From: an uncultured Pirellulales bacterium
Lineage (GTDB): Bacteria > Planctomycetota > Phycisphaerae > Sedimentisphaerales > SM23-30
Length of the DNA: 33,842 nt
Assembly: GCA_964574885.1 (NCBI GenBank)
Contig: CAZNQT010000001.1
Span: 1 to 33,842, forward strand
Reading direction: 5' to 3'
Below, piece after piece: positions 6,645 to 33,842 of this stretch. The position numbers and the translations under genes were made by a program. Below the pieces are notes generated by a model. That model had not been told where the DNA came from and did no database searches. It was given only the letters and a program-made list of their open reading frames with translations. The number at the start of each line of letters is the position of its first letter. Position 1 is the first letter of the stretch.

Positions 6645-8690
6645 ATGAACAAGAATTTCAACATAGTCTGTAATCGAATTCTCATAATTGTAGGCACCGG
6701 GATTTTTCTTGTGAGCAATGCACTTTATGCCCAAGAAAAAGGAAAATATCAAACATCTCAAATCGCTATTACTCCTAAAGTTGAGCGAGTCGAGCGATCT
6801 CTTTCACCCAAGAACATACGAAAAATCGGCGGCTTTATAGGTACGAGATTCAAGGCTAACTTAAATGAGTATCTACTTGTTTTTGACATCGATCATTATG
6901 TTCAGATGTTCGAAGAGAAACAACATCGGGACTGGTGGTGGATCGGCGAGCAGGCGGGCAAGTGGATGGAATCGGCTGTGTTGGCAGCAAGCCAAACCGA
7001 AGACATGGCACTTCGGGAAAAAGCGGAAAAGGCTCTGGCACGTCTGATAGCGTCGCAGGAACCGAGCGGGTATCTCGGAATTACCGATCCGGCGGTACGC
7101 ACGGATCAACTTCCCCTGCGCGGCATGGATGCGTATGAACTCTATTTCATGCTGCATGGTCTAATAACCGCATATGATCTATGGAGTGAAGAGCAGGCGC
7201 TGCAAGCCGCATCTCGTCTCGGTGACTACTTTGTGAATCACATTGGCCCCGGTAAAGCCCAGTTCTGGCCCCGGCCCAAGGGGAAAACCATTGCCGGTCA
7301 CAATATTCATTACTGCCTGGAAGGAACGTTACTGGCCAATCCCATGCTGCGTTTATACCTTGCCACGGGGGACGAGAAATATCTCAAATGGTCCAAGTGG
7401 GTAATTGACAACATTGATCTTTGGTCGGGTCACAATACCTTCTCGAAACTCGATCAGGTAGCCATCGGCGCTATGGGCGTTCACGAACTGCAACCAAAAG
7501 TACATTCCCATACTTTCCACATGAATCTACTCGGGTTCCTGCGTCTCTATCAGATTACCGGAGATGAGTCATTGCTGCGCAAAGTCCGGGGCGCCTGGCG
7601 CAATATTGCCAAGCGCCAGATGTATATTACCGGGGGCGTCAGTGTGGATGAATACTATAGAGCGGGACAAAATTTACCCGTTTCCGGTTCGGTGGTGGAA
7701 ACGTGCGCGATGATGTCGTGGATGGAACTGAGCCAATATTTGCTCGAGTTGACGGCGAATCCTATTTATGCCGATGTGATCGAACGGCTATTGTGGAACC
7801 ATTGGTTTGCGGCACAAGCGGTTGACGGCGATTCTTTTCGCTATTACGTACCACTAAACGGCGCCAAACCGGCCGGTTATTACCACGGACCCGACTGCTG
7901 TACGGCGAGCGGGCCCCGTATGACTGCTATGATCCCTACTTTGTTTTATGCGGTCGGGAAGGATGGGATTTATATTAATCAGTTTGTTGAGTCCGCTGCC
8001 GAAATCAAACTGGATTCCGGTAATATTGTTTCCTTAATCCAGGAGACGAAGTATCCCAGCCGAGGGGAACTGACGTTCAAAATCAATCCTCAACAGGCTG
8101 AATTCTTTGTCTTATCTATTCGTTTACCAGCCTGGTGCTCCAATCCATCCCTCAGTATAAACGACAAGATTATCGAAGGATTACATCCGGGAACCTATGT
8201 AAAACTTAAGCGTCACTGGCAGAAGGGGGATTATATCAAACTCACTTTGCCGATGCAGGCGAAATGGACTAAGCGCACCCACGCTACTGAAGATGCGTGG
8301 GCCTTGGTACGCGGACCGGTGGTCTATGCCGTGGATACCGTTTGGTGGGATTCTTCGATCTCAGAAATATTTGACAGGGCGATGCCGAAGGATATGTCGA
8401 AAGTAATTGGCGTGGTACTGGATGAATCAAACTTGAATGCCGATTTGAAATCCGAAATAACTCTTGAAAGAACTCTGGGACTCGCCTACCTCGTCACCAT
8501 TGCTTTTCCCAACGGTCAACGCGCGGAAGTACCTGCCTTGCCGTTTGCGAACGTGGGACGCTGGTATGCCGATCCGGCCCGAAAACCCGATTATAATGAA
8601 CGCCGATATCATTACGCCGTTTGGCTGCCTAACGTAGGCAGCGAAAGATATGCAGAGATCATGCGACAGTATAGACGAAAGCAAAAGTAA
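6645..8690 (+). CDS. glycoside hydrolase family 127-like (DUF1680, beta-L-arabinofuranosidase type)
   Basis: Signal peptide present. (alpha/alpha)6-type helices (YELYFMLHGLITAY). Motifs VVETCAMMSW and GPDCCTASGPR match the Glu/Cys and Cys-Cys zinc/nucleophile motifs known from HypBA1-type GH127 enzymes. The usual CCPPN is replaced by CCTAS. Confidence 0.8.
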   Translation: MNKNFNIVCNRILIIVGTGIFLVSNALYAQEKGKYQTSQIAITPKVERVERSLSPKNIRKIGGFIGTRFKANLNEYLLVFDIDHYVQMFEEKQHRDWWWIGEQAGKWMESAVLAASQTEDMALREKAEKALARLIASQEPSGYLGITDPAVRTDQLPLRGMDAYELYFMLHGLITAYDLWSEEQALQAASRLGDYFVNHIGPGKAQFWPRPKGKTIAGHNIHYCLEGTLLANPMLRLYLATGDEKYLKWSKWVIDNIDLWSGHNTFSKLDQVAIGAMGVHELQPKVHSHTFHMNLLGFLRLYQITGDESLLRKVRGAWRNIAKRQMYITGGVSVDEYYRAGQNLPVSGSVVETCAMMSWMELSQYLLELTANPIYADVIERLLWNHWFAAQAVDGDSFRYYVPLNGAKPAGYYHGPDCCTASGPRMTAMIPTLFYAVGKDGIYINQFVESAAEIKLDSGNIVSLIQETKYPSRGELTFKINPQQAEFFVLSIRLPAWCSNPSLSINDKIIEGLHPGTYVKLKRHWQKGDYIKLTLPMQAKWTKRTHATEDAWALVRGPVVYAVDTVWWDSSISEIFDRAMPKDMSKVIGVVLDESNLNADLKSEITLERTLGLAYLVTIAFPNGQRAEVPALPFANVGRWYADPARKPDYNERRYHYAVWLPNVGSERYAEIMRQYRRKQK

Positions 8691-8768
8691 AACGATTGAA
8701 ATGATATTTCATACTATGCATTCAAGGCTGGTGCTATTAATATGTTTTTTAATGCACAGGAGACCATG

Positions 8769-10247
8769 ATGAAACCAACATTTAAAATCCGGAGAATGGG
8801 ATTCCTGCTTTTGATCACCCTTTTGAGTATCTCTCTATCCGTCCAAGCTGCAAATAAAATTCAATCTACCGTTAAAAGAATCATACCGGCGTTTCCCGGC
8901 GCCGAAGGCGCCGGAGCCATCACTCCGGGGGGACGCGGTGGAAAGGTTTTTGAGGTTACTAATCTCAACGATAGCGGTCCGGGCAGTTTGCGTGCAGCAT
9001 TAGGAGCCGAAGGCGCCCGGATTATAATCTTCCGTGTATCGGGTATAATTACACTAGAAACGAAACTCACGATTGAGAATCCGTTTATAACTATTGCCGG
9101 CCAAACCGCACCTGGCGACGGTATTTGTATCCGTGGACAGACCACGGAAATTAACACGCACGATGTGATATTGCGTTACTTGCGTTTTCGTCGCGGCAAT
9201 ATCAAGGATCGCAACGATAGTCTGGGCGGATATCCGGTGGGCAATATCATCGTGGATCATTGCTCCGCCAGTTGGGGACTGGATGAAAATCTCTCGCTTT
9301 ATCGTTATATGAAAAAAATGCCCGACGGCTCAAGTAAGAAAATGCCGACCGAAAATCTTACGATTCAGTGGTGCATTTCGAGCGAGGCCCTCGACCTGAA
9401 CAATCACGCGTTCGGTGCCACCTGGGGAGGGAAGAATGGCTCGTTCCATCACAATCTGTTTGCCTGTAACACAGGACGTAATCCCAGTATTGGCTGGGGC
9501 GATCATTTTGATTTTCGTAACAATGTGCTTTTCAACTGGCGACATCGAACGGTGGACGGTGGTGATGCCAGTTCCATGGTCAATATTATCGGTAATTACT
9601 ATAAACCGGGACCGGTTACCAACGAGGGTTCCATTCGGTATCGGATATGCCGGCCTCAGCATTTGGACATGTTCAGTGAAGCACAGCGGCAGGGGAAATG
9701 GTATGTGGCCGACAATTATGTTGTCGGTTATCCGAAGGTAACTGCCGACAACTGGAATGGCGGCGTACAGTTCGACAAAGAAAATGCCGCGACCGAGGCG
9801 GAACTCAAGTCTCTCATAACCAAGATACGCGCGACCGAACCAATTTCCGCTACTCTCATAACCCAGCAATCCTCCCAGGAGGCGTATGAACTCGTATTGG
9901 CCCAAGCTGGCGCCGTACTGCCCAGGCGCGATCCCGTGGACATGCGTATTATCAATATCGTGCGTACCGGCAAACCAACGTACGGCAAGGGAATTATCGA
10001 CCTTCCTCACGATGTCGGAGGTTGGCTTGAATATAAATCTACATCTGCACCCTCCGACGACGATCATGACGGCATGCCGGACGACTGGGAGAAGAAATTC
10101 GGATTGAATCCGAACAATCCCTCCGACGCCGCTGCAGATAGCGACAACGATGGTTTTACGAATGTCGAAGAATGGTTTAACGGTACGGATCCAACGCAAT
10201 ATATTGATTACCGAAAACCGGAAAATAATATAAACACACTTCATTAA
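8769..10247 (+). CDS. pectate lyase, polysaccharide lyase family 1, with C-terminal thrombospondin-type-3-like Ca-binding repeats
   Basis: AFPGAEGAGAITPGGRGGKVFEVTNLNDSGPGSLRAAL...IIFRVSGIITL...ITIAGQTAPGDGICIRG is the typical PL1 N-terminal beta-helix signature. Signal peptide MKPTFKIRRMGFLLLITLLSISLSVQA. The start is ambiguous (ATG at 8742, 8766 or 8769); 8769 has the best spacing from GGAG at 8759-8762. Confidence 0.85.
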   Translation: MKPTFKIRRMGFLLLITLLSISLSVQAANKIQSTVKRIIPAFPGAEGAGAITPGGRGGKVFEVTNLNDSGPGSLRAALGAEGARIIIFRVSGIITLETKLTIENPFITIAGQTAPGDGICIRGQTTEINTHDVILRYLRFRRGNIKDRNDSLGGYPVGNIIVDHCSASWGLDENLSLYRYMKKMPDGSSKKMPTENLTIQWCISSEALDLNNHAFGATWGGKNGSFHHNLFACNTGRNPSIGWGDHFDFRNNVLFNWRHRTVDGGDASSMVNIIGNYYKPGPVTNEGSIRYRICRPQHLDMFSEAQRQGKWYVADNYVVGYPKVTADNWNGGVQFDKENAATEAELKSLITKIRATEPISATLITQQSSQEAYELVLAQAGAVLPRRDPVDMRIINIVRTGKPTYGKGIIDLPHDVGGWLEYKSTSAPSDDDHDGMPDDWEKKFGLNPNNPSDAAADSDNDGFTNVEEWFNGTDPTQYIDYRKPENNINTLH

Positions 10248-21738: not shown

Positions 21739-22284
21739 ATGAGTGAGGGAAAAGAATCCAGGACGAAGTTGTTTTTTCGCCTGTTTATGGCGAATGAAGG
21801 TCGTATCTATACCTATATTCTCATGCTGGTTCCCCATCGTGCCGAAGCCGACGATATAATGCAAGAAACCGCCATGGTGATGTGGAAGCGGTTTGCGGAT
21901 TTTGAAGCGGGGACGAATTTCTTGCGGTGGAGCAAGCAAATCGCGTTTTATAAAATCCTCGACTTCCGTAAAAAACGAAGCAAGGAGCGGATTTACTTCA
22001 ACGAAAATCTATTAGGCGCCCTTGCCGAACATGTCGATACAACGCTGGCAGAGGCTAATCCTCGTCTGATCGCACTTAAGAACTGCCTGGAGAAACTTGA
22101 CAAGTCCGACCGCAAGTTAATCTATCTTCATTACGAACAGGGTGTAACCATTAAAAAGATCGCTCAGGACCTTAAGCGTTCCATCCAAGGCATGTACAAA
22201 GTTATGACCCGGATTCATAATCAGCTTTTACGATGTATTAATCATAAATTAGCGTCTGAGGATTTCCGTGAGTTACTGGGATAA
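21739..22284 (+). CDS. ECF (sigma-70 family, group IV) RNA polymerase sigma factor, Rhodopirellula/Verrucomicrobium-type
   Basis: Region 2: ADDIMQETAMVMWKRFADFEAGTNFLRWSKQIAFYKILDFRKK. Region 4 HTH: LSDRKLIYLHYEQGVTIKKIAQDLKRSIQGMYKVMTRIHNQLL. Length 181 aa. Confidence 0.9.
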   Translation: MSEGKESRTKLFFRLFMANEGRIYTYILMLVPHRAEADDIMQETAMVMWKRFADFEAGTNFLRWSKQIAFYKILDFRKKRSKERIYFNENLLGALAEHVDTTLAEANPRLIALKNCLEKLDKSDRKLIYLHYEQGVTIKKIAQDLKRSIQGMYKVMTRIHNQLLRCINHKLASEDFRELLG

Positions 22285-23875
22285 TCAATCCGAACTAGGC
22301 GAGTTGATACTTGCCAACTTAGACGGGACGGCCAACGCCCAACAGCACGGTCAGTTGGAAAAACTGCTCACCGAGAATGCGGAAGCTCGGCAATATTACG
22401 GAGAATTCTTGTTAATTTACGCCGACTTGTGCCATCGTAATATTTTTGTCCCCGGAAAGGAGATTCAACCGGAAATCGGCGCCGACAATATTTTGCTGGA
22501 GGTGCTCGAGAAGGAAGAGAATACTATTACTTATAAGATCGACGAGAACCGATATCAAAACAAGGTAGAAGAAATCAAACGTGATGCGGAAGATGCCCTG
22601 CGGGAATTTTTAGAGCAAGAGCAGCGGCGGAATGCCGCAGACAATATCCCCCCGTATGTCCATGATCCCTCGTATCTGCCGTATTGGGTGCGCTCAGCGT
22701 TGGGCTTTGGCGGTCGGGTGTTGAAATCCGCCGTGTCCTACATGTGGAAAGCAGCGGCGGCCTGTCTGGTGATTCTACTGGGTTTCGGCGTATATCATCT
22801 CCTGAAATCCGGTCCGGTCTTAACAACCGGTGTTAATACGGTTATCGAGCGCCAAGAGAGGCAAATATCCGCCGGCAACGGGATGCGGCTTGAGCCGGGC
22901 GATGTCATCAAGACCGGTCCCGGCGGCAGAGCCGTTGTCAAATACCAAGGCGAGGATACTACAATAGAACTCAAGGAGAATACTTCCTTTAAGCTGGCTT
23001 CCTCCGAAAACATGGGTAAGCTGTTGGAAATCACCGAGGGGACCATCCACGGCCAGGTTGCCCGACAACCGTCGGACAAACCGATGATACTCGACGCTCC
23101 CCAGGCAACCGTCAAAGTACTGGGGACCGACTTCACTTTCGCGCTCAAGCCGGATTCGTCGTGGATCCGGATGAATTCAGGGACCGTAGAAATGACCCGG
23201 AAAGCCGATTGTCGGAGTATAAAAGTAGATTCGAATCATTATGCGGTAGCCGGCAGTAATTATTCCCTGGCGGCAAAACCGGTTTCGGATTTTGAAGCGG
23301 ACTTTTCCGGATTGATGATGGATACCGATTTCGAGAACGATCGGATTGGGTATTTTCCCACTTTATTTCGTCTATCTCAGATGATGGAAGGCGCATGGCG
23401 CGTGGAGGAAATTCAGGGCAATCGGGTTCTGAAAGGGCGGGGTAAAAATCCGATTTGTGATTTTGGCAACCCCGGTTGGCGGGATTACCGACTCTCGGTA
23501 CGGGTGTATTTCGATACTCCTCCGGAACGACTCGGCGTGATCGTGCGGGATGATCCGATTACCGGAAAGAACTATCAGTTTGAGTTGCGACCGACGGGGG
23601 TAATGCTGATCCGAAGTCTGGATCAAGAACACGACAGCCCGGAGATTATCCGGAGCACAAATATTGAGCGAGTCGAACCGGGACAATGGCACGACTTGGC
23701 GGTGATTTGCCAAGGGGATAAATTGGAGTTTTGGGTGGACGGGCGCCTGGCCATTCAAACTCGACAGTCCTGGGCGCCGCAGGGCGTATGCCGACTCATG
23801 ATAATCAATGGCCAAGCACTGTTCGATGATCTGGCAGTGAGTAAATTAAGCGATTTGGCAAAAACCGATTATTAA
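22268..23875 (+). CDS. FecR-family transmembrane anti-sigma factor with a C-terminal concanavalin-like (DUF1080/LamG-like) sensor domain
   Basis: The GTG start overlaps the sigma stop by 17 nt. Anti-sigma N-terminal helix (LEKLLTENAEARQYYGEFLLIYADL), one TM segment (AAAACLVILLGFGVYHLL), a FecR block (GMRLEPGDVIKTGPGGRAVVKYQGEDTTIELKENTSFKL...VKVLGTDF), then GAWRVEEIQGNRVLKG...WRDYRLSVRV...WHDLAVICQGDKLEFWVDG. Confidence 0.8.
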   Translation: MSYWDNQSELGELILANLDGTANAQQHGQLEKLLTENAEARQYYGEFLLIYADLCHRNIFVPGKEIQPEIGADNILLEVLEKEENTITYKIDENRYQNKVEEIKRDAEDALREFLEQEQRRNAADNIPPYVHDPSYLPYWVRSALGFGGRVLKSAVSYMWKAAAACLVILLGFGVYHLLKSGPVLTTGVNTVIERQERQISAGNGMRLEPGDVIKTGPGGRAVVKYQGEDTTIELKENTSFKLASSENMGKLLEITEGTIHGQVARQPSDKPMILDAPQATVKVLGTDFTFALKPDSSWIRMNSGTVEMTRKADCRSIKVDSNHYAVAGSNYSLAAKPVSDFEADFSGLMMDTDFENDRIGYFPTLFRLSQMMEGAWRVEEIQGNRVLKGRGKNPICDFGNPGWRDYRLSVRVYFDTPPERLGVIVRDDPITGKNYQFELRPTGVMLIRSLDQEHDSPEIIRSTNIERVEPGQWHDLAVICQGDKLEFWVDGRLAIQTRQSWAPQGVCRLMIINGQALFDDLAVSKLSDLAKTDY

Positions 23876-23953
23876 CCTAGAGATGTAAAACCGTGGTTCT
23901 TGGTTTGTAGTTAGGAAATTAACGGAAATTATATATGAAGAAGGAGAATGGTG

Positions 23954-25435
23954 ATGGGTAAAAAATCAGTTCTAATACTTGCTGGTTTATGGGTACTGAT
24001 ATTTGTTGGAGCGACATATGCAGCGCCGCCGATGCTGGTCTGGCAAAACTCGTTGGAGAATGACTCCACCAGCACAGTTGATGGTGGTGAAATTATCAAT
24101 CCTCCTTCCAGTTACGTTTCCGGGGCTATAGGCAACGCTTTCGCTGGCAACGGCAGCGTTTATGCCGAATGGGACAACATCGATGTCGCTACCATCTTTG
24201 ACGACGTCTGGGATAATGATGCGGGATTTACGGTCGATTTGTATTTCCGCGGCGACCACTGGGACACCCATTCCGGTGACTCGGGATTTTGGGCGGTCTT
24301 TGACCGAGGCGACGGAAATGACGGTCACATAATCATATCCGTGCGCGACGGTAACTTGCGTTTTCCGTGGAGGGATTCCTATACCGGCTGGAACAAAACT
24401 GCGTACCTGACCGGTATTACGCTGGCCAACAACATAACCTATCGACTAACCGTACGTCAGTATGAAAATAACTTTGAGGTGTATTTGGACGGTGGCGCCT
24501 ACAGCAACAGTTCCCCTGTCTATGCAGAGAACGACTGGAATGAAACGATTGCTTTCCCGGAATATAATTCCGGCTCTCCCGGCCGCGACATGTATGTGGG
24601 CCAACGTAGCGAAACCTTCGGCGGTATTCTGCAGAGCGGCGAATGGGTGGACCAGGTACGTGTCTATAACGGGTACTATACCCCAGTAGAGCTGGATATT
24701 CCCTACGCCACGAATCCCAATCCCGGCATGGATGAAATAAACGTATCACCGGATGTTGTTCTTCACTGGGATGCCCCGGATCCCAATTTCATAAAAGATT
24801 TACCCGCGCGTTATAACGTATATTTTGGCACCGAACCAAACGACACCCATCCAAATTTCGATTTTCCTCTAGTATCCGAAAACCAGTTGACAACCTTCCA
24901 TGATCCGCTGGGGGAGGCGGTTTTGCTGGAGGAAGCAACGGATTACTATTGGCGGATCGACGTGGTCGATCCTAATTTTGGCGAAGCGAAGATATATGAA
25001 GGCGATCTTTGGCACTTCACGACGATTCCGCCCAAAGCAACGGAACCGTTTCCAGAGGATAATGCGACGGATGTGGACCAAAATGTGGAGTTAAGCTGGA
25101 CCCCTGGTTACGGTGCAGTTTCTCACGATGTCTATATCAGTACCGTACAGTCGGAGGTTGAAAACCGTTCTATTCCTCCGGTTAACGTAGAAGTGGAAAA
25201 GTATAAACCGCTGGATTTGGATTGGGAGACGGAGTATTTCTGGCGGATTGTCGAACGTTTTGACGGCGGGGGAGAAGCCATGGGGGACATCTGGAGCTTT
25301 ACCACGGGTACGCCGAAATGTGCGGAAGTCTTGGGCGGCGACTTTGACAATAATTGCATAGTGGATCTAAGAGACGTTGCCATTATGATCGCTAACTGGC
25401 TGGAGTGCAATCTCACGAACGGCTATTGTCCATAA
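23954..25435 (+). CDS. secreted LamG-like lectin-domain protein, paralogue 1 (LamG-like, two Fn3-like modules, dockerin-like tail)
   Basis: GGAG at 23943-23946 lies 7 nt before the ATG at 23954 (the track start at 23948 abuts the RBS). Signal peptide, then GNAFAGNGSVYAEWDN...DLYFRGDHWDTHSGDSGFW...TYRLTVRQ..NNFEVYLDGGAY...GEWVDQVRVYNGYYTP. Two P.P..DATDV...LSWTPG...YYWRIDV/YFWRIVE...W.FTT modules follow. Confidence 0.8.
   Translation: MGKKSVLILAGLWVLIFVGATYAAPPMLVWQNSLENDSTSTVDGGEIINPPSSYVSGAIGNAFAGNGSVYAEWDNIDVATIFDDVWDNDAGFTVDLYFRGDHWDTHSGDSGFWAVFDRGDGNDGHIIISVRDGNLRFPWRDSYTGWNKTAYLTGITLANNITYRLTVRQYENNFEVYLDGGAYSNSSPVYAENDWNETIAFPEYNSGSPGRDMYVGQRSETFGGILQSGEWVDQVRVYNGYYTPVELDIPYATNPNPGMDEINVSPDVVLHWDAPDPNFIKDLPARYNVYFGTEPNDTHPNFDFPLVSENQLTTFHDPLGEAVLLEEATDYYWRIDVVDPNFGEAKIYEGDLWHFTTIPPKATEPFPEDNATDVDQNVELSWTPGYGAVSHDVYISTVQSEVENRSIPPVNVEVEKYKPLDLDWETEYFWRIVERFDGGGEAMGDIWSFTTGTPKCAEVLGGDFDNNCIVDLRDVAIMIANWLECNLTNGYCP
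25337..25432 (+). other. dockerin-like four-Cys C-terminal tag (copy 4)
   Basis: GDFDNNCIVDLRDVAIMIANWLECNLTNGYCP-stop, with an upstream Cys in TPKCAE. Confidence 0.7.
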
Positions 25436-25524
25436 CGGAAAACAAAGATCACGAAGGTTTTGGGGGGTTATTAAAAAATGTAAAGTGTAATCGAAAAACT
25501 TGAAACTGAGGAAGGAGATTGGTG

Positions 25525-27003
25525 ATGGGCAAAAAACTAGATCTAATACTTATTGGTTTATGGGTACTGATGATTGTCGGAGCGACAAGTGCAGTTCCGC
25601 CGGTGCTGGTATGGCAAAACACTCTGGAGAATGACGCTACGAGTACCGTCGATGGGGGGGAAATTATCAATCCCCCATCCAGTTACGTACCCGGGGCCAG
25701 GGGGAACGCATTCGCCGGCAACGGCAGCGTCTATATCAGTTGGGACAACAGCGAGGTCGCTGCCATCTTCGACGACATCTGGGACAATGATGCCGGTTCT
25801 ACGATCGATTTGTACTTCCGCGGCGACCACTGGGACACCCATTCCGGTGACTCGGGATTCTGGTCGGTGACGGACCGATACGGTGGCAATGACGGTTATT
25901 ACATCCTGTCAGTGCGCGATGGAAAGTTACGTTTTCCGTACAAAGATTCTTATACCAATTATAGCCAAGCACCCCATCTGACCGGTATTACCTTGGCCAA
26001 TAATGTCACCTATCGACTGACCGTACGTCAACATGATAATAACTTTGAGGTGTATTTGGACGGCGGCGCCTACAGGAACAGTTCCCCTGTCTTTACCGAC
26101 AATACCTGGTCAGAAACCATCGCTTTCCCGCAATATAACTCCGGTTCTCCGGGCCGACAGATGGCGGTAGGCGATCGCGCTATCTTCGGTGGTACGCTTC
26201 AGAGCGGCGAGTGGGTGGATCATGTACGTGTTTATAACGGGTACTATACCCCAGTAGAGCTGGATATTCCCTACGCCACGAATCCCGATCCCGGCATTGA
26301 TGAAATAAACGTATCACCGGATGTGGTTCTTGACTGGGATGCCCCGGATCCCAATTTCATAAAAGATCTTCCGGCTCGTTATAATGTGTACTTCGGCACC
26401 GAACCGAACGATACCCATCCCAATTTTGATTTTACTTTGGTATCTGAAAATCAGTTGGATACCTTATATGACCCACTGGGGGAGGCGGGTTTGCTGGAGG
26501 AAGCAACGGATTACTACTGGCGGATCGACGTGGTCGATCCCAATTTTGGCGAAGCAAAAGCATATACGGGTGATCTCTGGCACTTCGCCACGATTCCGCC
26601 CAAAGCGACGGAGCCATATCCCGATGACGATCAAACGAATGTGGCCCAAAATGTAGAGCTCAGTTGGACCCCCGGTTACGGTGCAGTTTCTCACGATGTT
26701 TACCTCAGTACCATACAATCTGAAGTCGAAAACCGTTCTATTCCTCCGATCAACGTAGAAGTAGAAAAGTATAAACCGCCGGATTTGAATTGGGAAACGG
26801 AATATTTTTGGCGGATTGTCGAACGCTTTGATGGCGGGGGAGAAGCCACTGGAGATGTCTGGAGATTTACCACCGGTACGCCGCAATGTGAGTATGAATT
26901 GGATGGCGATGCGAACGGAGATTGTGTAGTCGATCTCAGAGATTTCGCCATTATGGCGGGCAACTGGCTGGTGTGCAATCTGACAAACGGCTATTGCCCA
27001 TAG
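25525..27003 (+). CDS. secreted LamG-like lectin-domain protein, paralogue 2 (same architecture as paralogue 1)
   Basis: Collinear with paralogue 1 over its full length and roughly four-fifths identical by eye. Same RBS-to-ATG geometry (GGAG at 25514-25517, ATG at 25525). Confidence 0.8.
   Translation: MGKKLDLILIGLWVLMIVGATSAVPPVLVWQNTLENDATSTVDGGEIINPPSSYVPGARGNAFAGNGSVYISWDNSEVAAIFDDIWDNDAGSTIDLYFRGDHWDTHSGDSGFWSVTDRYGGNDGYYILSVRDGKLRFPYKDSYTNYSQAPHLTGITLANNVTYRLTVRQHDNNFEVYLDGGAYRNSSPVFTDNTWSETIAFPQYNSGSPGRQMAVGDRAIFGGTLQSGEWVDHVRVYNGYYTPVELDIPYATNPDPGIDEINVSPDVVLDWDAPDPNFIKDLPARYNVYFGTEPNDTHPNFDFTLVSENQLDTLYDPLGEAGLLEEATDYYWRIDVVDPNFGEAKAYTGDLWHFATIPPKATEPYPDDDQTNVAQNVELSWTPGYGAVSHDVYLSTIQSEVENRSIPPINVEVEKYKPPDLNWETEYFWRIVERFDGGGEATGDVWRFTTGTPQCEYELDGDANGDCVVDLRDFAIMAGNWLVCNLTNGYCP
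26905..27000 (+). other. dockerin-like four-Cys C-terminal tag (copy 5)
   Basis: GDANGDCVVDLRDFAIMAGNWLVCNLTNGYCP-stop, with an upstream Cys in TPQCEY. Confidence 0.7.
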
Positions 27004-27101
27004 CGGAAAATGAAGAGAAAAAAGTTTTTTGGCGTGTTGCCAGGATATAAAAAGTAGTTACGTAGAATAGTTTAATAGTAAGGAAAGAAAGGTGGTGGAA
27101 G

Positions 27102-27926
27102 ATGGTAAAAAAGTTTTTTCTAGTGTCTGCGTTTTTGTCGCTGCTTTTGTTTAGTGGGTTTGCAATTGCTGCGCCGGTACCGGTCTGGCAGAACACCCTG
27201 GAAAATGATGCTACGAGTACGGTCGATGGCGGTGAAATTGTAAACCCGCCTTCGAGCTACGTTCCCGGTTCGCAGGGGAATGCATTTGCCGGCAACGACA
27301 GCGTCTATGTCCAATGGGACAACACCGATGTCGCTAACATCTTTGACGGCGTCTGGAACAACGCCCTTGGCTCTACGGTCGATTTGTACTTCCGCGGCGA
27401 CCACTGGGACACCCATTCCGATGATTCGGGACTATGGTCGGTGGTGGACCGACTCGGCGGCGATCCGGATGGTTATTTCATCTTGTCAGTGCGTGACGGA
27501 AGCTTGCGTTTTCCGTATAAAGATTCCTATTCCGGTTTAAGTGAGGCTCCTCACCTGACCGGTATCACACTGGCTAACGATACCACGTATCGCTTGACCG
27601 TACGTCAACTTGGCGCCAACTTTGAGGTGTATCTGGACGGCGGTGCCTACAGCAACGGTTCCCCTGTCTTTTCAGAGAGCGACTGGCCCCAAACTATATC
27701 TTTCCCGGAATATAATGACGGGTCTAATAGCGGCGGCCGTGAGATGAATGTAGGCAACCGCAGCAGTTTTTTCGGCGGCGCCCTTCAGAGCGGAGAATGG
27801 GTGGACAGCATTCGAGTTTTCAATGGGTACTATACGCCGGCGGAGATAGGTGAGATTCCGGAACCCTGTTCGCTGCTGTTGCTTTCGATGGGTGCCCTGC
27901 CGCTACTGCGGCGTAAACGCGGGTAA
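27102..27926 (+). CDS. LamG-like lectin-domain protein, paralogue 3, with a PEP-CTERM sorting tail
   Basis: Signal peptide MVKKFFLVSAFLSLLLFSGFAIA. Same LamG-like domain as paralogues 1 and 2. After YNGYYTPAEI it runs directly into PEP-CTERM. Confidence 0.85.
   Translation: MVKKFFLVSAFLSLLLFSGFAIAAPVPVWQNTLENDATSTVDGGEIVNPPSSYVPGSQGNAFAGNDSVYVQWDNTDVANIFDGVWNNALGSTVDLYFRGDHWDTHSDDSGLWSVVDRLGGDPDGYFILSVRDGSLRFPYKDSYSGLSEAPHLTGITLANDTTYRLTVRQLGANFEVYLDGGAYSNGSPVFSESDWPQTISFPEYNDGSNSGGREMNVGNRSSFFGGALQSGEWVDSIRVFNGYYTPAEIGEIPEPCSLLLLSMGALPLLRRKRG
27855..27923 (+). other. PEP-CTERM sorting signal
   Basis: IPEPCSLLLLSMGALPLLRRKRG-stop: a PEP motif, a hydrophobic span and a basic cluster. Confidence 0.85.
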
Positions 27927-27985
27927 GTAGAAAGTGAAAAGAGACTTAAGTTTCTGAATTGGGGCTACATGACCAAAAAACGCAG

Positions 27986-28026
27986 GAGCCCCGGATTGCG
28001 GTACCGCATGATGGGGCTCTTTTCTC
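27986..28026 (+). terminator. probable Rho-independent terminator after paralogue 3
   Basis: GAGCCCC (27986-27992) pairs with GGGGCTC (28013-28019). The 20-nt loop contains the palindrome GCGGTACCGC. TTTTCTC follows. This is the only convincing hairpin plus T-tract between the sigma gene and paralogue 4. Confidence 0.55.
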
Positions 28027-28112
28027 TGGAAAAGAAGAGTGACGAAACCTGAATGACGAAACAATAAATCCTTAATCCCGGGATTCGATTTTATGACAAG
28101 GAGAAAGAAGAA

Positions 28113-31100
28113 ATGCGCAAGAAGCAGCGAATGGTTGTTTGCCTGGTGGCGCTACTATCCTTTTATAGCTGTTCCCTCGACGGCGTTCAGGGAGCGCCCG
28201 ATCCGATCTGGCACTGCAGCCTGGATAATCTGGATTCGATTACCATTGATGGCGGCGCGATTGTGGATGGATCGGCGAGTTTCGTACCCGGCGCCATCGA
28301 TAACGCCTTTGCCGGCAACGGCAACGTCTATGCGAGTTGGGATAACACGGAAGTTGAGAACATTTTCGGCAGTTGGAACAACAGCCTGGGATCTACAGTA
28401 GATCTATACTTTCACGGCGATCACTGGGATGCCCATTCCGGTGATTCAGGTTTCTGGTCGGTGGTGGATAGGCTTGATGGTAATGACGGGTATTTCATTC
28501 TGTCAGTGCGCGACGGGAGTTTACGTTTTCCATACAAGGATTCTTATACGAATTATAATCAAGCTCCCCATCTGACCGGCATCCCACTGGCCAACAATGT
28601 CACGTATCGCCTGACGGTGCGCCAACTCAATAACAACTTTGAGGTGTATCTCGACGGCGGCGCCTACAGCAACAGTTCTCCTGTATATTCCGATAACACC
28701 TGGAGCCAGACTATTTCATTCCCGGAATATAATGGCGGCAGTGGTAGTAGCGGACGCCATATGAATGTCGGCAATCGCAGCGTATGGTTCGACGGTACGC
28801 TCCAGAGCGGCGAATGGGTGGACCATATTCGGGTCTATAACGGGTATTACACGCCGGCGGAGTTGGGTGATCCGCGCGGTGATGAAGACTGCCCCATAAG
28901 CGATATGGATGATGATTGCGATGTCGATATGTTGGACTTGCAGATTGTTCTCAAGCAGTGGTTGAATGTGGACTTTCCCACGCAAGGACTGGTCGCACAT
29001 TGGAAGTTGGATGGCGATTCGTACGACAGCACCGGTAACCATGACGGTATAATCTATGGCAATCCGATCTGGGATCCGAATGGTTATATCGACGGCGCCC
29101 TGAGCCTGGATGGTGACGGAGACTATATCGATGTGAGCAATCCCTCTTCTTTAAAGCCCAACTTGCCGATTACCCTGGCCGCCTGGATCAAACTTGCAGA
29201 ACTGGGTGATTATCAGGTTATTATCAACCTTGATGAAAAAGACAATGATTACTCCACTCGATTTTATGGTGCTGTTCTGTTTGTGTGGAATACAGGACAG
29301 TTGGTCGCTTCTTTCGGTGACGGACAACCAAACTACAGCAGTCGATATAAGATGGGCACAACGATATTGCAGACGCATACCTGGAATCATGTGGCGGCGG
29401 TAATCCGGGGCGCGAATGACTTCAACCTGTATATTGACGGTCATGATGATGGGGGTGAGTATGGCGGTGATGGTGGGGCGATGGTGTATTCCGATGGAAA
29501 CTCCCAGATCGGCTCTCGTAACGGCACGGCTTTATTTCTGCATGGTGATATCGACGATGCTCGAATTTATGATCGGGCCTTACGCTCCGACGAGGTCGGG
29601 ATTTTGGCGAATGAGGCGGATCTTAACAAAGACGGCAGTGTGAATCTGGACGACTTTACCATTCTGGCTGCGGAATGGCTATTCGGAACGCAAGTGTCCA
29701 TAACCCGGCAACCAGAGAACCTGACTCTATATGAAGGAAATACAGCTACTTTCACTGTGTCTGCGGAAAGCGCTGAACCCATCAGCTATCAATGGCAGAA
29801 GAACACCGTTGACTTGAACGACGGCGGCGACATTTCTGGTGTTACAACCGACACGCTGCAAATTACAAATACGGAAACCTCCGATGAAGGCCAATATCGC
29901 TGCGTGGTAAGTAATATTTTTAATTCGGTCATCTCGGACGAAGCCACTTTGACAGTTACTTTCGGGGTGCCGGTCGGCCGTCAAACCCTTTATGATGCGA
30001 CAACCAATCGCCGTTATATCCTCTATGTACCGATGGATTACAATCCTCCCCAAAAGCTTTATCCGCTGATTATCAGTTCCCACGGCACCAGCCAGAACGG
30101 CGATACCGAGATGGACTCGACCGGCCCCAACAGCGGCTACGACCGAGGCACGCCCACCTGGCCCACCCTGGCCGAGGATAACGACGTAATTGTCGCCTGC
30201 CCCGACATGACCGGAGCGTACGGTGAAAGCGGCTGCGCGGTCAGTTCCACGCATCTAAGCCAACTGGCCTCCGATGATACCGCCATAATGGCCATTATCA
30301 ACGATATTGAAGCCACCTATGATATCGACACAAACAAAATAATGTTGACCGGCTTCTCCGGCGGCGGGAACGTGGTACACTATGTAGGGCTCCGTCATCC
30401 GGATGTATTTAACGCCATCTGTGCCCGACACGGCAACTTCCATGAAGATGAGACGCCCAGTCCACTGCCGAATGGTGCGGTCGATACGGATGTATATATT
30501 TTCACCGGCACTAATGACGGCGTCTGCGGAACAAATGAGGCTATCGCTTGGTACACGGCACAAGGATTTAATTATCTGGACACGGATTACTTCAGCACCT
30601 ATCCAAGCAGCGAACATACCACGGACAGACACCATGCGTTGAACTGGTTTCTGAATTTGAATCTGGAAGTAAGCGCTAACGGCCACTACGTAAGATATCA
30701 TGGCCAGAATCTATTACTAATCGGCGACAGCGGCACCCAATGCGCAACCCAGAACAGCAATTTGGACTACCGCCAGTGGATAGATGACTGTGCGGCTCGT
30801 GGCATCAAAGCAATTCACGTTTGGTCGTTCATGGGTGCCCGCCAGAAACAAGATGGCTCGGTCATCGAAAGCCGTTGGGGATACGTATATCCGTGTGTGA
30901 CGCCCTGGGCAAGGCATACTTCAGGGCCGTTGGCCAACGATCAGCTCTATCAGTGGGATTTGCAATCCTTAGATGAAGGTCCGGATGGAGATCTCACCCA
31001 CTACTGGCCTCGCATGCGCGATATGTGTCAATACGCCAAAAGTAAGGGAGTCCTGGTCGGTTATACGATGTTTACCGGTTGGATCAAAGGCAATAGCAAC

Positions 31101-32027
31101 GCCTGGCCATATCACCCGTTTAATGTCGCCAACGGAGGCCATCTGACGACGTATCCGGATGCCGGTGTGACCATCGAGTCGCCCGGTACGGAGGTCTGGC
31201 AGGAAATCTACTCCGACGCCTGGTCGAACGCCAAGAAGACTCAGTGGATATGGGAACAGTTTTCCCTTAAGGCAATCAACGAACTTGGTTCGATTGGTAA
31301 TGTGTTTTTTGTATTTTTTGATGAGCATTCCTATACGGAAGGCAATATGGGCGATCATTTCCGGGACTTCTTCCGCAGCCGCGGCCAGGTATGGATGGAT
31401 TGGAACGCCCGCCGCAGCACCATCGATTGGGTCATGAGCGGCACGTTCGGCGGAGACGATAAAAACTCCAACGCCGTCTCGGGCTTTAACGGCAGTCCTG
31501 CACGACCGTACTTCTTCCTGGAAGGAGAACCTTATATGGGAGACGGCGTGCGTACCGCAATTTGGACTTTCACAATTGGCGGCGGAAACTACTTCTTCCA
31601 CGCCGACGCTGGTCAAGAAACTGTGACTACGGGCATTATGGTGTACGATCCCAGTTCAACGCCGCCGGGACAGAAGGACAAAGTCCTGGAACGGCTTTCG
31701 TGGCTCGGTCACGCCAGCACGTTTTTCAATCAGTATGTGGACGATCTGGACTCGCTCTCACCTGCCAACGGACTGACGAGCAGTACTCCTGGAGTATATT
31801 GTCTGGCCGATAACGGCAGGGAATATGTGGTTTATTCCAAGATCGGCGCGGCGGTAAACTTTACCGTCAATCTCAGCGCCGCTGCCGGTAAAACTCTAAA
31901 CTGCCGGTTCTATAATCCTCAGAACGGCGTATTCAACTCGACCTTCCAGCGCAGCGGCGGAAACAGCGCCGAATCGTTCTCCAAACCGGATTCCAATGAC
32001 TGGGTGCTTCACATCGTGGAAAATTAA
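28113..32027 (+). CDS. 1304-aa secreted chimera: LamG-like paralogue domain 4, dockerin-like repeat, Laminin_G_3 domain, dockerin-like repeat, Ig I-set domain, alpha/beta-hydrolase esterase (CE1/PHB-depolymerase-like), TIM-barrel-like glycosidase-like domain, beta-sandwich
   Basis: RBS AAGGAGA lies 8 nt upstream. Laminin_G_3: LVAHWKLDGDSYDSTGNHDG...GALSLDGDGDYI...WNHVAAV...LYIDG...GDIDDARIYDRAL. Ig: ITRQPENLTLYEGNTATFTV...YQWQKN...DEGQYRCVVSN. Esterase: YILYVPMDYNP...LIISSHG...IMLTGFSGGG (nucleophile elbow). C-terminus: NLLLIGDSGTQ...GIKAIHVW...WPYHPFNVANGGH...FFDEHSYTEG...GVYCLADNGREYVVYSK. Confidence 0.8.
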   Translation: MRKKQRMVVCLVALLSFYSCSLDGVQGAPDPIWHCSLDNLDSITIDGGAIVDGSASFVPGAIDNAFAGNGNVYASWDNTEVENIFGSWNNSLGSTVDLYFHGDHWDAHSGDSGFWSVVDRLDGNDGYFILSVRDGSLRFPYKDSYTNYNQAPHLTGIPLANNVTYRLTVRQLNNNFEVYLDGGAYSNSSPVYSDNTWSQTISFPEYNGGSGSSGRHMNVGNRSVWFDGTLQSGEWVDHIRVYNGYYTPAELGDPRGDEDCPISDMDDDCDVDMLDLQIVLKQWLNVDFPTQGLVAHWKLDGDSYDSTGNHDGIIYGNPIWDPNGYIDGALSLDGDGDYIDVSNPSSLKPNLPITLAAWIKLAELGDYQVIINLDEKDNDYSTRFYGAVLFVWNTGQLVASFGDGQPNYSSRYKMGTTILQTHTWNHVAAVIRGANDFNLYIDGHDDGGEYGGDGGAMVYSDGNSQIGSRNGTALFLHGDIDDARIYDRALRSDEVGILANEADLNKDGSVNLDDFTILAAEWLFGTQVSITRQPENLTLYEGNTATFTVSAESAEPISYQWQKNTVDLNDGGDISGVTTDTLQITNTETSDEGQYRCVVSNIFNSVISDEATLTVTFGVPVGRQTLYDATTNRRYILYVPMDYNPPQKLYPLIISSHGTSQNGDTEMDSTGPNSGYDRGTPTWPTLAEDNDVIVACPDMTGAYGESGCAVSSTHLSQLASDDTAIMAIINDIEATYDIDTNKIMLTGFSGGGNVVHYVGLRHPDVFNAICARHGNFHEDETPSPLPNGAVDTDVYIFTGTNDGVCGTNEAIAWYTAQGFNYLDTDYFSTYPSSEHTTDRHHALNWFLNLNLEVSANGHYVRYHGQNLLLIGDSGTQCATQNSNLDYRQWIDDCAARGIKAIHVWSFMGARQKQDGSVIESRWGYVYPCVTPWARHTSGPLANDQLYQWDLQSLDEGPDGDLTHYWPRMRDMCQYAKSKGVLVGYTMFTGWIKGNSNAWPYHPFNVANGGHLTTYPDAGVTIESPGTEVWQEIYSDAWSNAKKTQWIWEQFSLKAINELGSIGNVFFVFFDEHSYTEGNMGDHFRDFFRSRGQVWMDWNARRSTIDWVMSGTFGGDDKNSNAVSGFNGSPARPYFFLEGEPYMGDGVRTAIWTFTIGGGNYFFHADAGQETVTTGIMVYDPSSTPPGQKDKVLERLSWLGHASTFFNQYVDDLDSLSPANGLTSSTPGVYCLADNGREYVVYSKIGAAVNFTVNLSAAAGKTLNCRFYNPQNGVFNSTFQRSGGNSAESFSKPDSNDWVLHIVEN
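28902..28970 (+). other. internal dockerin-like repeat 1 of the chimera
   Basis: DMDDDCDVDMLDLQIVLKQWLNV, preceded by EDCPIS. It keeps the first two Cys but lacks the terminal C..CP. Confidence 0.6.
29619..29687 (+). other. internal dockerin-like repeat 2 of the chimera
   Basis: DLNKDGSVNLDDFTILAAEWLFG: a canonical DxNxDGxxxxxD Ca-loop plus helix, with no Cys. Confidence 0.6.
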
Positions 32028-32366: not shown

Positions 32367-33842
32367 CTACGGACAGTTGACAGGGTGGTTACATTCCAAC
32401 CAGTTATTAGCCAGGGCAACAAGATCCGGGAAAAAGTAGATGTCCATCCAGCCAGTTGCAAGCTCGTCAAAGTCAAACAGATCAATCCGGCAATCTTCGT
32501 TCAGGTCGCCGGGAATTATGGGATGACCCTCATCACCACAAACAGCGCCCAATACAAAGTCGGTTAAAACCACCGCCCTGGGATCAAACAAACTTTCGGA
32601 ACCATAATGCACTACAAAAGAGCCAGTTCCCTCGGCCATGTTAAACCGCTGGCCATTCGAGGCATTGGCAAATTCGCCGTTAATTCCCCCACTGGTTGTC
32701 AGTATCGTGAATACGTCGTTTGGATCGGGAACAAAATCATTTAGCTGACGTACAAGCAAACTCCCGGCCAGGTTAGCCACACCGGCACCGGTTCCACTAA
32801 TAACCAATCGATCATACTGACTACCTGCTGCTGGACCGCCAATCTCGATCTCAAGCCGTGCCGTCTCGCCGTTGTCGTAGTTTCCTACATACTGAAGAAT
32901 ACCTGCTGACAAACCGGGTGAAAAACCGCCAAGGTTCAGGAAGCCGGCTCCACCGCCGATCGTTACAGTACCGATGCCCTCAACAACACCGTTTGGTTCA
33001 TTGGTGAACGAACCGGAAGACACCAAAAGGTTTACCCCGGCTTCTTTGATACTAATCAAGGCATTGTTGAGGTAACTGCCACCTGATCGGTTGAAAGTGG
33101 CACTCTGGCTCAGGTTGACCATACCGTTATTGATTAGGTTGGCCTGCAAAGATCGGGTACCGCCGCCTGAACCACCGAAACTGATGATACCGCTGCCGTT
33201 GTTGGTTAACGTGCCGTTGGACACTATGAAAATAGCGACATTGTTGCTGGAGGTGTTAAGGGCCAGGGTACTGTCATTGCTGAAGCCTGTGGCGGAGGTG
33301 ATGTAGCTATTGTAACTACCATCCGCCTGAGCGGTCAGGAACTGCCCGGCCGCCAGGTCGCCGCTGAAGGTGTTGTTGTTGCCCCGCATAATAAAGTCGC
33401 CGTTACCCGCTTCCGGAGCAATATTCAAATAGGAATTGGTTAACAGCATCGGATTTCCGGTGATTTCACCGCCGTTGTAATTGAAGGTGATGCTCGTCGG
33501 ATCGAACGATCCCTGGACATCGAGAATCCCCCCGTCCTGATTGAACGCCTGAGAGAACCCATTGATCGTCAAGTCCTTGTCCGCCGCGATGTTGAAAGCG
33601 TTGTTATTGGTGTAACTGCCGCTGTTCTTGCTGAAACTGGCGTCCTGATTGATGTTTACGGTACCGTTGTTGATCAGGTTGGCCTGCAATTCCCGCAGGC
33701 CGCCGCCCGTGCCGACGAAACTGATAATCCCGTCAGCGTTATTGGTTAACGCACCGCCGGTCACTGTGAAAATGGCGGCATTGTTGGTGGAGGTGTTAAG
33801 GGCCAGGGTACTGTCATTGCTGAAGCCTGTGGCGGAGGTGAT
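32367..33842 (-). CDS. 3' part of a large repeat-containing beta-helix adhesin-like surface protein with a dockerin-like C-terminal tail (5' end outside the window)
   Basis: The minus-strand frame stays open to the window edge: the track start at 33764 is an internal GTG and the upstream codons read ITSATGFSNDSTLALNTSTNNAAIFT. Gly/Asn/Thr/Ser-rich strand repeats, then ARLEIEIGG...YDRLVISGTG.ANLAGSLLV..L..F.P, then the tail. Confidence 0.8.
   Translation of the reverse strand: MTSATGFSNDSTLALNTSTNNAAIFTVTGGALTNNADGIISFVGTGGGLRELQANLINNGTVNINQDASFSKNSGSYTNNNAFNIAADKDLTINGFSQAFNQDGGILDVQGSFDPTSITFNYNGGEITGNPMLLTNSYLNIAPEAGNGDFIMRGNNNTFSGDLAAGQFLTAQADGSYNSYITSATGFSNDSTLALNTSSNNVAIFIVSNGTLTNNGSGIISFGGSGGGTRSLQANLINNGMVNLSQSATFNRSGGSYLNNALISIKEAGVNLLVSSGSFTNEPNGVVEGIGTVTIGGGAGFLNLGGFSPGLSAGILQYVGNYDNGETARLEIEIGGPAAGSQYDRLVISGTGAGVANLAGSLLVRQLNDFVPDPNDVFTILTTSGGINGEFANASNGQRFNMAEGTGSFVVHYGSESLFDPRAVVLTDFVLGAVCGDEGHPIIPGDLNEDCRIDLFDFDELATGWMDIYFFPDLVALANNWLECNHPVNCP
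32370..32510 (-). other. dockerin-like four-Cys C-terminal tag (copy 6, extended two-helix version)
   Basis: GDLNEDCRIDLFDFDELATGWMDIYFFPDLVALANNWLECNHPVNCP-stop, with an upstream Cys in AVCGDE. Confidence 0.7.
33063..33842 (-). repeat. intragenic direct repeat: an approximately 240-bp segment recurring at a 540-bp offset (33063-33302 and 33603-33842)
   Basis: 33241-33302 and 33781-33842 differ at 1 of 62 nt (TTGTTG[C/G]TGGAGGTGTTAAGGGCCAGGGTACTGTCATTGCTGAAGCCTGTGGCGGAGGTGAT). Flanking similarity is about 70-75 percent by eye. The repeat probably continues beyond the window. Confidence 0.8.

Follow-up and report, generated by a model that had tools for sequence, protein, structure and literature searches.

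Four consecutive genes, here called P1–P4, lie in a window of 33,842 nucleotides (nt), the whole stretch of DNA that was analysed and in which all positions are counted; it makes up a complete contig. They form part of a pectin-type polysaccharide-degradation cluster of an uncultured, anaerobic Phycisphaerae-type planctomycete near Sedimentisphaerales. On balance, we judge it likely that P1–P4 are tandem paralogues in which one glycan-binding domain is followed by three complementary continuations, and that this N-terminal domain (N-domain) has been homogenised by recombination. A preliminary description of the stretch had proposed that one recognition-type domain is joined at its C-terminal edge to a PEP-CTERM-type signal, to a cassette with a dockerin-like tail and to enzymes, and this arrangement was confirmed.

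Four tandem paralogues diverge at a common point

P1–P4 are intact open reading frames (ORFs) arranged in tandem on the plus strand (Table 1). A MAFFT alignment was collinear from the signal peptide to the motif GEWVDx(V/I)RV(Y/F)NGYYTP(V/A)E(L/I), with 146 invariant columns, and the last codon common to the paralogues ends at nt 24694 (P1), 26262 (P2), 27848 (P3) and 28865 (P4). Up to this point the paralogues are pairwise 63–78% identical in amino acid and 65–81% in nucleotide sequence, far beyond chance; past it, homology is retained for P1 versus P2 only. The alignment thus bears out the collinearity to one shared motif, followed by full divergence, that had been noted before. P1 and P2 are 79% identical in the N-domain and 84% identical in their C-terminal halves, and are therefore whole-gene duplicates. 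Three C-terminal fates result, not the four counted in the preliminary description, all of whose other quoted sequence details were correct. Its view of the junction as one fixed point holds within the window, where the breakpoint is shared, but not across the family, since several homologues beyond the window fuse the PEP-CTERM signal straight onto ...YNG and lack YYTPAEL.

Upstream of P1, P2 and P3 (23876–23947, 25436–25518 and 27004–27101) we observed a short common element, GTTTTTGG ... AGGATATTAAAA, before a purine-rich ribosome-binding stretch, so that the duplicated unit seems to take in 5' non-coding sequence. The region upstream of P4 is longer and has no obvious copy of this element. 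P2 was called from a TTG (25519–25527) and then reads MVMGKK as in P1; its start may be the in-frame ATG two codons downstream. In a terminator and promoter scan from P1 to P4, terminator-like sites were fewer than in shuffled sequences and none fell in intergenic regions, which gave nothing firm on operon structure.

The junction coincides with the C-terminal edge of a ConA/LamG-type fold

An AlphaFold2 model of P3, based on 39 family members, reached a mean predicted local distance difference test (pLDDT) score of 90 and comprised a signal-peptide helix, a β-sandwich (residues 29–241), a four-residue helix (246–249; YYTPAEI) and a C-terminal helix (255–270). The signal peptide, MVKKFFLVSAFLSLLLFSGFAIA/AP, was read from the sequence and is modelled as a helix at residues 2–19. 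Searching the PDB with this model in Foldseek yielded 522 matches at E ≤ 0.001, led by concanavalin A (ConA)-like lectin jelly rolls (E about 5e-8); the top matches were the N-lobe of the tetanus/botulinum toxin Hc fragment (TeNT Hc), domain 4 of the GH43 arabinanase AbnA and sialidase lectin domains. The shared N-domain is thus confidently modelled as a jelly-roll β-sandwich of the ConA/laminin G (LamG) type. Alignment, structure model and Foldseek agree that the N-terminal regions are truly homologous; the preliminary description had allowed that they might turn out to be unrelated.

In the model, the junction falls at the C-terminal edge of the fold, formed by the last strand, GEWVDxIRVYNG, and a short capping helix, YYTPAEL, and is thus an ordinary domain boundary. 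Laminin_G_3 domains end in ...IDDVRIYNRALS.EE.., the counterpart of the junction motif. When the family profile was compared with P4's own LamG_3 domain by hhalign, VDSIRVFNGYYTPAEIG was set on IDDARIYDRALRSDEVG, although not significantly (E = 0.07), and the comparison with the C-terminal domain of the neighbouring anti-sigma protein was likewise not significant (E = 0.12). It is therefore the fold that assigns the domain to LamG. The Laminin_G_3 model (PF13385) is matched by only a few homologues (P0036, P0043, P0046), and a Pfam scan gave no PF13385 match at E ≤ 0.1 for the N-domains of P1–P3 or P4.

The N-domain resembles Laminin_G_3/ConA-like lectin carbohydrate-binding modules (CBMs) in its jelly-roll fold, in its position in a locus of carbohydrate-active enzymes (CAZymes), in its linkage to enzymes in P4 and in that some members reach PF13385. 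Unlike these modules, it is always N-terminal, and its family is small and lineage-restricted. Its fold makes glycan binding the most likely role of the domain.

A profile search of 1.84 billion representative proteins recovered 23 at E < 1e-30; in 22 of these the match starts within the first ~26 residues, the exception being P0074, a 328-residue fragment. Nearly all of 57 close homologues are 250–300 residues long and end in PEP-CTERM. Scanning 185,579 species-representative genomes for close relatives of P1 gave no match. The family is thus small, belongs to Phycisphaerae/Sedimentisphaerales and occurs mostly in the short PEP-CTERM form. Besides PEP-CTERM, its C-terminal parts comprise two fibronectin type III (FnIII) modules with a four-cysteine (four-Cys) tail; dockerin, Ig, esterase and glycosidase-like domains; PKD-rich regions ending in a Cys-rich double dockerin; and Ig plus LamG. 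P0070 (393 residues; locus L009, 656..1837) carries the N-domain, a double dockerin-like module (GDYNGDQKVDAGDY...GDGNGDGNITSADY...) and then a PEP-CTERM tail.

P3 ends in a PEP-CTERM-type signal

Past the junction, P3 continues with GEI and then PEPCSLLLLSMGALPLLRRKRG. Its C-terminus, IPEPCSLLLLSMGALPLLRRKRG, presents Pro-Glu-Pro, a hydrophobic stretch (the modelled helix 255–270) and a basic cluster, and each of P, E and P in the motif is conserved in at least 90% of 39 family members. P3 thus has in common with proteins of the PEP-CTERM/exosortase system a signal peptide, the PEP motif, a hydrophobic helix and a terminal Arg/Lys cluster. Many homologues with PEPAT..LLGLGG..RRRKA tails carry PF07589, and P0011 is named a PEP-CTERM sorting domain-containing protein by NCBI.

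PEP-CTERM tails are similar in a lineage-specific manner (Haft et al. 2006; PMC1569441). The present family is alike in this respect, its tail subtype being better conserved than the passenger domain: the tail IPEPCSLLLLS(V/M)G(A/V)LPLLRRKR(G/S) is nearly identical on P0054, P0056 and P0057, whose N-domains are 41–43% identical to that of P3. Proteins with the IPEPCSLLLLS-type subtype systematically lack a precomputed PF07589 match, and current PEP-CTERM models therefore appear to under-call this subtype.

In agreement with the preliminary description, no ORF in the window matched an exosortase family in Pfam and NCBIfam scans. A literature search on PEP-CTERM and exosortase in Sedimentisphaerales/Phycisphaerae returned nothing relevant. 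Processing of the P3 tail is presumably the task of an exosortase whose gene lies in another part of the genome.

P1 and P2 carry an FnIII cassette with a single-repeat dockerin-like tail

P1 and P2 continue from the junction as DIPYATNP.... The C-terminal half of P1 was modelled (pLDDT 87) as two β-sandwiches and a single terminal helix, and the top 50 Foldseek matches to it were dominated by tandem FnIII pairs (E about 1e-8); the Pfam fn3 model did not match the P1/P2 modules. The FnIII-fold module of P1 is widespread in Planctomycetota proteins. The tail consists of 41 residues, with four invariant cysteines around one dockerin-type Ca-loop and helix, and follows the pattern C-x(n)-D-x-[DN]-x-[DN]-C-x-[VI]-D-x2-D-x(n)-W-L-x-C-x(n)-C. 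A profile built from 10 tails matched nothing but dockerins when run against PDB sequences (best match 5nrm_B, E = 1.8e-4), and it aligned separately to repeat 1 and to repeat 2 of solved dockerins. AlphaFold2, Foldseek and the tail profile thus uphold the earlier reading of these regions as two Fn3-like modules followed by a four-Cys dockerin-like tail.

Like type I dockerins, the tail has a D-x-[DN]-x-[DN]-...-D Ca-loop and an amphipathic helix ending in W-L, and the orthologues of P4 carry the usual two-repeat form. Unlike them, it contains a single repeat, with one loop and one helix, and four invariant cysteines, one of which replaces the loop glycine; moreover, it always forms the last 41–59 residues. 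The tails of P2 and of the ORF at 720..3476 scored 14.1–16.9 bits against Dockerin_1 (PF00404), below the cut-off of 22.9, and the other four of the six tails in the window, including that of P1, matched no Pfam family. No match to the Pfam Cohesin model was found among the window ORFs scanned.

The six ORFs with a four-Cys tail lie at 1..528, 720..3476, 4762..6513, 23948..25435, 25519..27003 and 32367..33842(-). Outside the window, the cassette of FnIII and tail follows CBM_4_9 and LamG domains, with one carrier in the cultured Anaerohalosphaera lusitana, and a related double-repeat tail follows GH11 xylanases; this distribution was judged from the proteins at hand. Searching 5.8 billion proteins with the 41-residue tail profile gave 11 candidates, all of them fragments. 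Non-cellulosomal dockerins have been reported in Planctomycetes, where a "planctosome" has been proposed (PMC6461901), and the dockerin-like loop and helix suggest that the four-Cys tail may serve in binding.

Instead of a dockerin-type binding module, the tail might be a C-terminal signal for secretion or sorting that is specific to the lineage, comparable to the C-terminal domain of the type IX secretion system (T9SS); a transport machine would recognise it and might remove it. Such a role would agree with its strictly C-terminal position, the last conserved Cys being followed by 0–2 residues (C, C-P, C-P-E, C-G-I, C-P-F, C-W-Y), with the unrelated nature of its passengers (PL11 lyase, CBM, LamG, repeat proteins), with a single Ca-loop/helix repeat that fails the two-repeat definition of a dockerin, and with the lack of a cohesin in the scans of the window ORFs. 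However, the only sequence similarity of the tail is to dockerin repeats, relatives carry full two-repeat dockerins at the same position (P0220/P0242/P0243, L006) and, in the P4 orthologues, internally, and no candidate transporter is linked to the tail. We regard a sorting signal of this kind as an unlikely alternative.

P4 is a multi-domain enzyme with a parted dockerin

P4 continues from the junction as GDPRGDEDCPISDMDDDC.... Pfam and NCBIfam scans bore out the succession given in the preliminary description, a dockerin-like repeat followed by lectin, Ig, esterase and glycosidase-like domains. The Ig I-set domain spans residues 529–615 (PF07679, 6.8e-12), the esterase (residues ~630–840) matched NF050058 and TIGR01840 below cut-off, most strongly to the polyhydroxybutyrate (PHB)-depolymerase type, and the protein ends in Collagen_bind_2 (PF12904, 2.4e-6). 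A PDB sequence search with the last 475 residues gave no match; Collagen_bind_2 and the conserved orthologues suggest that this region is glycosidase-like.

Repeat 1 of P4 aligns with the first of the two dockerin repeats of three orthologues, L001c, L002e and L004b. In the orthologues at L001 (2520..5852), L002 (10001..13279) and L004 (2160..4769), the two dockerin repeats are adjacent after the N-domain and LamG_3 is absent. P4 thus has the repeat number of a canonical dockerin, but the LamG_3 insert parts the repeats, and at 28890–29669 a dockerin appears to have been split by the insertion of a domain.

Mixed arrays are conserved in other genomes

The genomic loci closest to the array come from Planctomycetota, Sedimentisphaerales and Anaerohalosphaeraceae metagenome-assembled genomes (MAGs). 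A Planctomycetota MAG (L001) has P1-type, P3-type and P4-type genes in that order, three Anaerohalosphaeraceae loci (L004, L012, L013) have a P1-type and then a P4-type gene, and at L014 a PKD-type paralogue comes immediately after a PEP-CTERM-type gene. In a more distant lineage (L006, 1..645), a P4-like glycosidase-type domain with a Cys-rich two-repeat dockerin tail lies just upstream of the PKD-type P0068, and an ECF sigma factor and a Ser/Thr kinase-TPR protein are encoded downstream. The gene array of mixed architectures is thus recurrent across genomes. As the architectures are kept together in the same order, we suggest that their roles are complementary and non-redundant and that the architectures are not interchangeable.

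The latter point bears on the proposal, made in the preliminary description, that the dockerin-like tail and PEP-CTERM are equivalent and mutually exclusive surface-attachment devices for one recognition module. No protein in the window has both tail types, each type stands at the very C-terminus after the same domain boundary, many secreted proteins bear the four-Cys tail (six ORFs within 34 kb), and the choice-of-anchor families provide a precedent for one domain with alternative sorting signals. Against this, both forms are kept side by side in conserved gene order elsewhere, and P0070 unites a double dockerin-like module with PEP-CTERM. Moreover, P4 and its orthologues carry dockerin-like repeats internally, and the tail has no transmembrane segment and always stands behind spacer domains, so that it is a folded module and not a sortase-type signal. 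No cohesin or other receptor was identified. In addition, the four-Cys tail occurs on enzymes such as PL11, while within the N-domain family PEP-CTERM is found almost only on the minimal protein. Equivalence of the two devices therefore seems to us rather improbable, somewhat more so than a sorting role of the tail.

The recurrence also decides on a technical explanation, namely that the metagenome assembly produced the array by joining sequences chimerically at a repeat. The contig is of metagenome type and the repeats, 1.5 kb apart, are 65–81% identical in nucleotide sequence. The four ORFs are intact, however, the copies are too divergent to be mis-assembled, and each architecture and junction recurs in independent assemblies in the same gene order. 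We therefore rejected an assembly artefact, the probability of which we consider negligible.

As a separate observation, a second, unrelated N-domain (VIYPNDD...RG..NYNA...) shows the same split in adjacent genes at L002: the product of 5587..6243 (218 residues) ends in PEP-CTERM, and that of 6434..9823 (1129 residues) contains a dockerin-like repeat, FnIII-like modules and enzyme-like regions.

Gene conversion in a relative and purifying selection on the N-domain

In a neighbour-joining tree of 78 N-domain sequences (100 bootstraps), the N-domains of the tail-type and enzyme-type proteins of L001 were sisters (99%), as were those of the L004 pair (78%), and the long architectures P0059, P0062, P0065 and P0068 each stood beside a PEP-CTERM protein. 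The C-terminal parts are orthologous across genomes, with 53–69% identity. When L001a (64..1608) was compared with L001c (2520..5852), ~360 nt (nt 294–650 of the coding sequence) were 87–100% identical, between flanks of 40–78% identity. This tract holds a 101-nt identical run, which was reached in none of 5000 permutations (p < 0.0002). It is a clear case of gene conversion between tail-type and enzyme-type paralogues. Gene conversion is claimed here for the family and not for this contig: inside the window we did not accept it as proven, because cross-genome controls also gave low permutation p-values. Recombination that is limited to the homologous stretch accounts for the sudden loss of homology at the edge of the domain.

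Pairwise dN/dS of the N-domains ranged from 0.09 to 0.24 (dS 0.6–3), which indicates purifying selection. The preliminary description had seen substitutions clustered in a few loops and, with them, diversified ligand specificity. Neither was recovered: sites variable among P1–P4 showed no enrichment outside strands (Fisher p = 0.14) and no clustering (permutation p = 0.30), and they followed the family-wide variability, measured as entropy (Spearman rho 0.60), in tests that have little power, as they rest on four sequences. Together with the dN/dS values, these tests led us to reject positive or diversifying selection at this resolution.

The likeness of N-domains within one genome could also arise if the N-domain were a homotypic assembly module, by which the anchored P3 would recruit P1, P2 and P4 through N-domain contacts. 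The N-domains evolve in concert within a genome and are under purifying selection, and a small anchored paralogue adjoins larger ones in conserved arrays; a shared contact surface would account for the resemblance among paralogues of one genome. The N-domains in the window differ by 22–37%, however, which is much for a specific self-interface. Moreover, glycans are the usual ligands of LamG/ConA folds in bacterial CAZyme loci, and gene conversion between tandem repeats arises without a selective reason. Homotypic assembly thus appears very unlikely, even less probable than equivalent anchors.

Genomic setting

In addition to the array, the window encodes PL11, GH127, DUF6298, DUF4838, GH65-like and DUF1559 pseudopilin-type proteins. 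Directly upstream of P1 lie an extracytoplasmic function (ECF) sigma factor and an anti-sigma protein (Table 1). The anti-sigma gene shares 17 nt with the sigma factor gene and stops 72 nt short of P1; residues 404–500 of its product gave weak matches to PF06439 and PF13385.

Table 1. Positions of P1–P4, their modules and neighbouring genes in the window
Feature	Positions	Strand	Basis
P1	23948..25435	+	495-residue ORF
P1 signal peptide and family-specific ConA/LamG-like N-domain, ending in GEWVDQVRVYNGYYTPVEL	23948..24694	+	alignments, AlphaFold2 model of P3, Foldseek
P1 two FnIII-fold spacer modules, motif Y.WR(I/V)D....G..W.FTT	24695..25309	+	AlphaFold2 (pLDDT 87), Foldseek
P1 four-Cys C-terminal tail (TPKCAEVLGGDFDNNCIVDLRDVAIMIANWLECNLTNGYCP) and stop; one dockerin-type Ca-loop and helix	25310..25435	+	tail profile, AlphaFold2
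P2	25519..27003	+	494-residue ORF
P2 modules: N-domain to nt 26262, two FnIII modules, four-Cys tail 26878..27000	25519..27003	+	alignment to P1
P3	27102..27926	+	274-residue ORF
P3 signal peptide and ConA/LamG-like N-domain	27102..27848	+	AlphaFold2 (pLDDT 90), Foldseek
P3 PEP-CTERM-like tail GEIPEPCSLLLLSMGALPLLRRKRG and stop	27849..27926	+	aligns over full model
P4	28113..32027	+	1304-residue ORF
P4 signal peptide and ConA/LamG-like N-domain	28113..28865	+	alignment
P4 dockerin-like repeat 1 (CPISDMDDDCDVDMLDLQIVLKQWL), residues 260–284	28890..28964	+	read from sequence; aligns with orthologue repeat 1
P4 Laminin_G_3, residues 333–495	29109..29597	+	PF13385, 3.8e-23; not in orthologues
P4 dockerin-like repeat 2 (DLNKDGSVNLDDFTILAAEWL), residues 482–519	29556..29669	+	PF00404, 18.8 bits, below 22.9
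P4 Ig I-set, PHB-depolymerase/S9-type esterase, glycosidase-like region ending in Collagen_bind_2	29697..32027	+	Pfam, NCBIfam
PL11 rhamnogalacturonan lyase with four-Cys tail (about 3333..3473)	720..3476	+	PF21348, 8.6e-143; tail pattern (regex)
Secreted protein with FnIII-like and PKD modules and four-Cys tail	4762..6513	+	scans, tail pattern (regex)
Repeat-rich protein running off the window end; four-Cys tail with insertion	32367..33842	-	tail pattern (regex); no Pfam/NCBIfam match
ECF sigma factor	21739..22284	+	TIGR02989 (Rhodopirellula/Verrucomicrobium-type sigma-70), 150.7 bits versus 124.55; Pfam Sigma70_r2, r4_2
FecR-type anti-sigma protein with C-terminal ConA-like (3-keto-disaccharide hydrolase/LamG-like) domain	22268..23875	+	PF04773 FecR, 6.2e-10

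Discussion

Based on these results, we suggest that each of P1–P4 would be exported by its signal peptide and present a ConA/LamG-type N-domain as a likely glycan-binding module. In one continuation, the commonest in the family, this domain would be followed by a PEP-CTERM-type signal, which may place the protein at the cell surface in an exosortase-dependent manner. In another, two FnIII spacers and the 41-residue four-Cys tail would follow, a cassette that is also used on other CAZymes and binding modules. In the third, the domain would be wired to a multi-enzyme with dockerin, Ig, esterase and glycosidase-like parts and act like a CBM. The three forms, kept together as a conserved array, would complement each other. 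Recombination among neighbouring N-domain segments would homogenise the domain up to, and not past, the end of homology, so that the junction stays sharp.

Several observations weigh against this interpretation. Many deep nodes of the N-domain tree have low support, and P3 and P4 of the window group mostly with proteins of their own architecture. Within the window, a 42-nt identical run between P2 and P3 gave p = 0.001, which is weak, as a cross-genome control pair gave p = 0.011. None of the N-domains of P1–P4 reaches any Pfam or NCBIfam model, in which the window's four copies are unlike the Laminin_G_3/ConA-like CBMs, and the fold resemblance behind the glycan-binding role is at 10–17% identity. 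Linkage to the ECF sigma/anti-sigma pair was dropped as a defining part of the array, the pair not being upstream of the array at L012. Finally, the P3 tail (PEPCSLLLLS.GALPLLRRKRG subtype) differs from curated PEP-CTERM signals in that it scores below both model cut-offs (TIGR02595, 13.3 bits versus 16; PF07589, 15.1 versus 20.7), with full-length alignments in both cases. What had been called a textbook PEP-CTERM signal thus keeps its motif order, helix, basic end and full-length alignment, but not a score above threshold. The preliminary description had itself named failure against a PEP-CTERM hidden Markov model as grounds for refutation; formally the tail does fail, but biologically the objection is weak, as the alignment covers each model in full and many homologues exceed the PF07589 cut-off.

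Among known concepts, Haft's choice-of-anchor domains, combined with PEP-CTERM modularity, come closest. In choice-of-anchor families (NCBIfam/InterPro COA A–X), one extracellular domain bears varied C-terminal signals, e.g. PEP-CTERM or LPXTG (PMC11878542). Similarly, the present N-domain occurs with PEP-CTERM, a dockerin-like tail or enzymes, and the family offers at least two different C-terminal regions, namely PEP-CTERM, two FnIII modules with the four-Cys tail, PKD with a double dockerin, and dockerin with PEP-CTERM. No named choice-of-anchor model was matched in NCBIfam, which gave nothing for P1 and P2 and only weak PEP-CTERM-related matches for P3. Unlike in choice-of-anchor proteins, the alternative to PEP-CTERM is not a second sortase-type signal but a folded, dockerin-like module preceded by FnIII spacers, and the variants are neighbours in a single conserved tandem array, among which gene conversion exchanges sequence. 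The principle of modular sorting tails on a shared domain is thus already established, and the value of the present case is incremental. What it adds are the single-repeat four-Cys dockerin-like tail and the evidence for concerted evolution of the shared domain.

A more far-reaching combination of these elements can be envisaged, although we hold it to be speculative and unlikely as a whole. The four-Cys tail would be an undescribed attachment or sorting module of Sedimentisphaerales type, and the array a planctomycete Sus-like or cellulosome-like system, in which a PEP-CTERM-anchored binder, tail-tethered binders and a multi-enzyme share one glycan-recognition domain. Gene conversion would keep this domain matched, with all components targeting the same polysaccharide.

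Anaerobic Phycisphaerae are abundant polysaccharide degraders in sediments. How they retain binding proteins and enzymes at the cell surface is, to our knowledge, essentially unknown. The locus gives concrete proteins with which the destinations of PEP-CTERM and dockerin-tailed forms can be traced in a planctomycete. In addition, it defines two families that lack a Pfam or NCBIfam model, namely the LamG-like domain at the N-terminus and the dockerin-like tail with four cysteines and a single repeat, and it represents a small conserved array in which one domain is wired to three C-terminal modules. Moreover, it illustrates that a sharp fusion point among paralogues need not mean repeated swapping of C-terminal parts, but may be a domain boundary sharpened by recombination.

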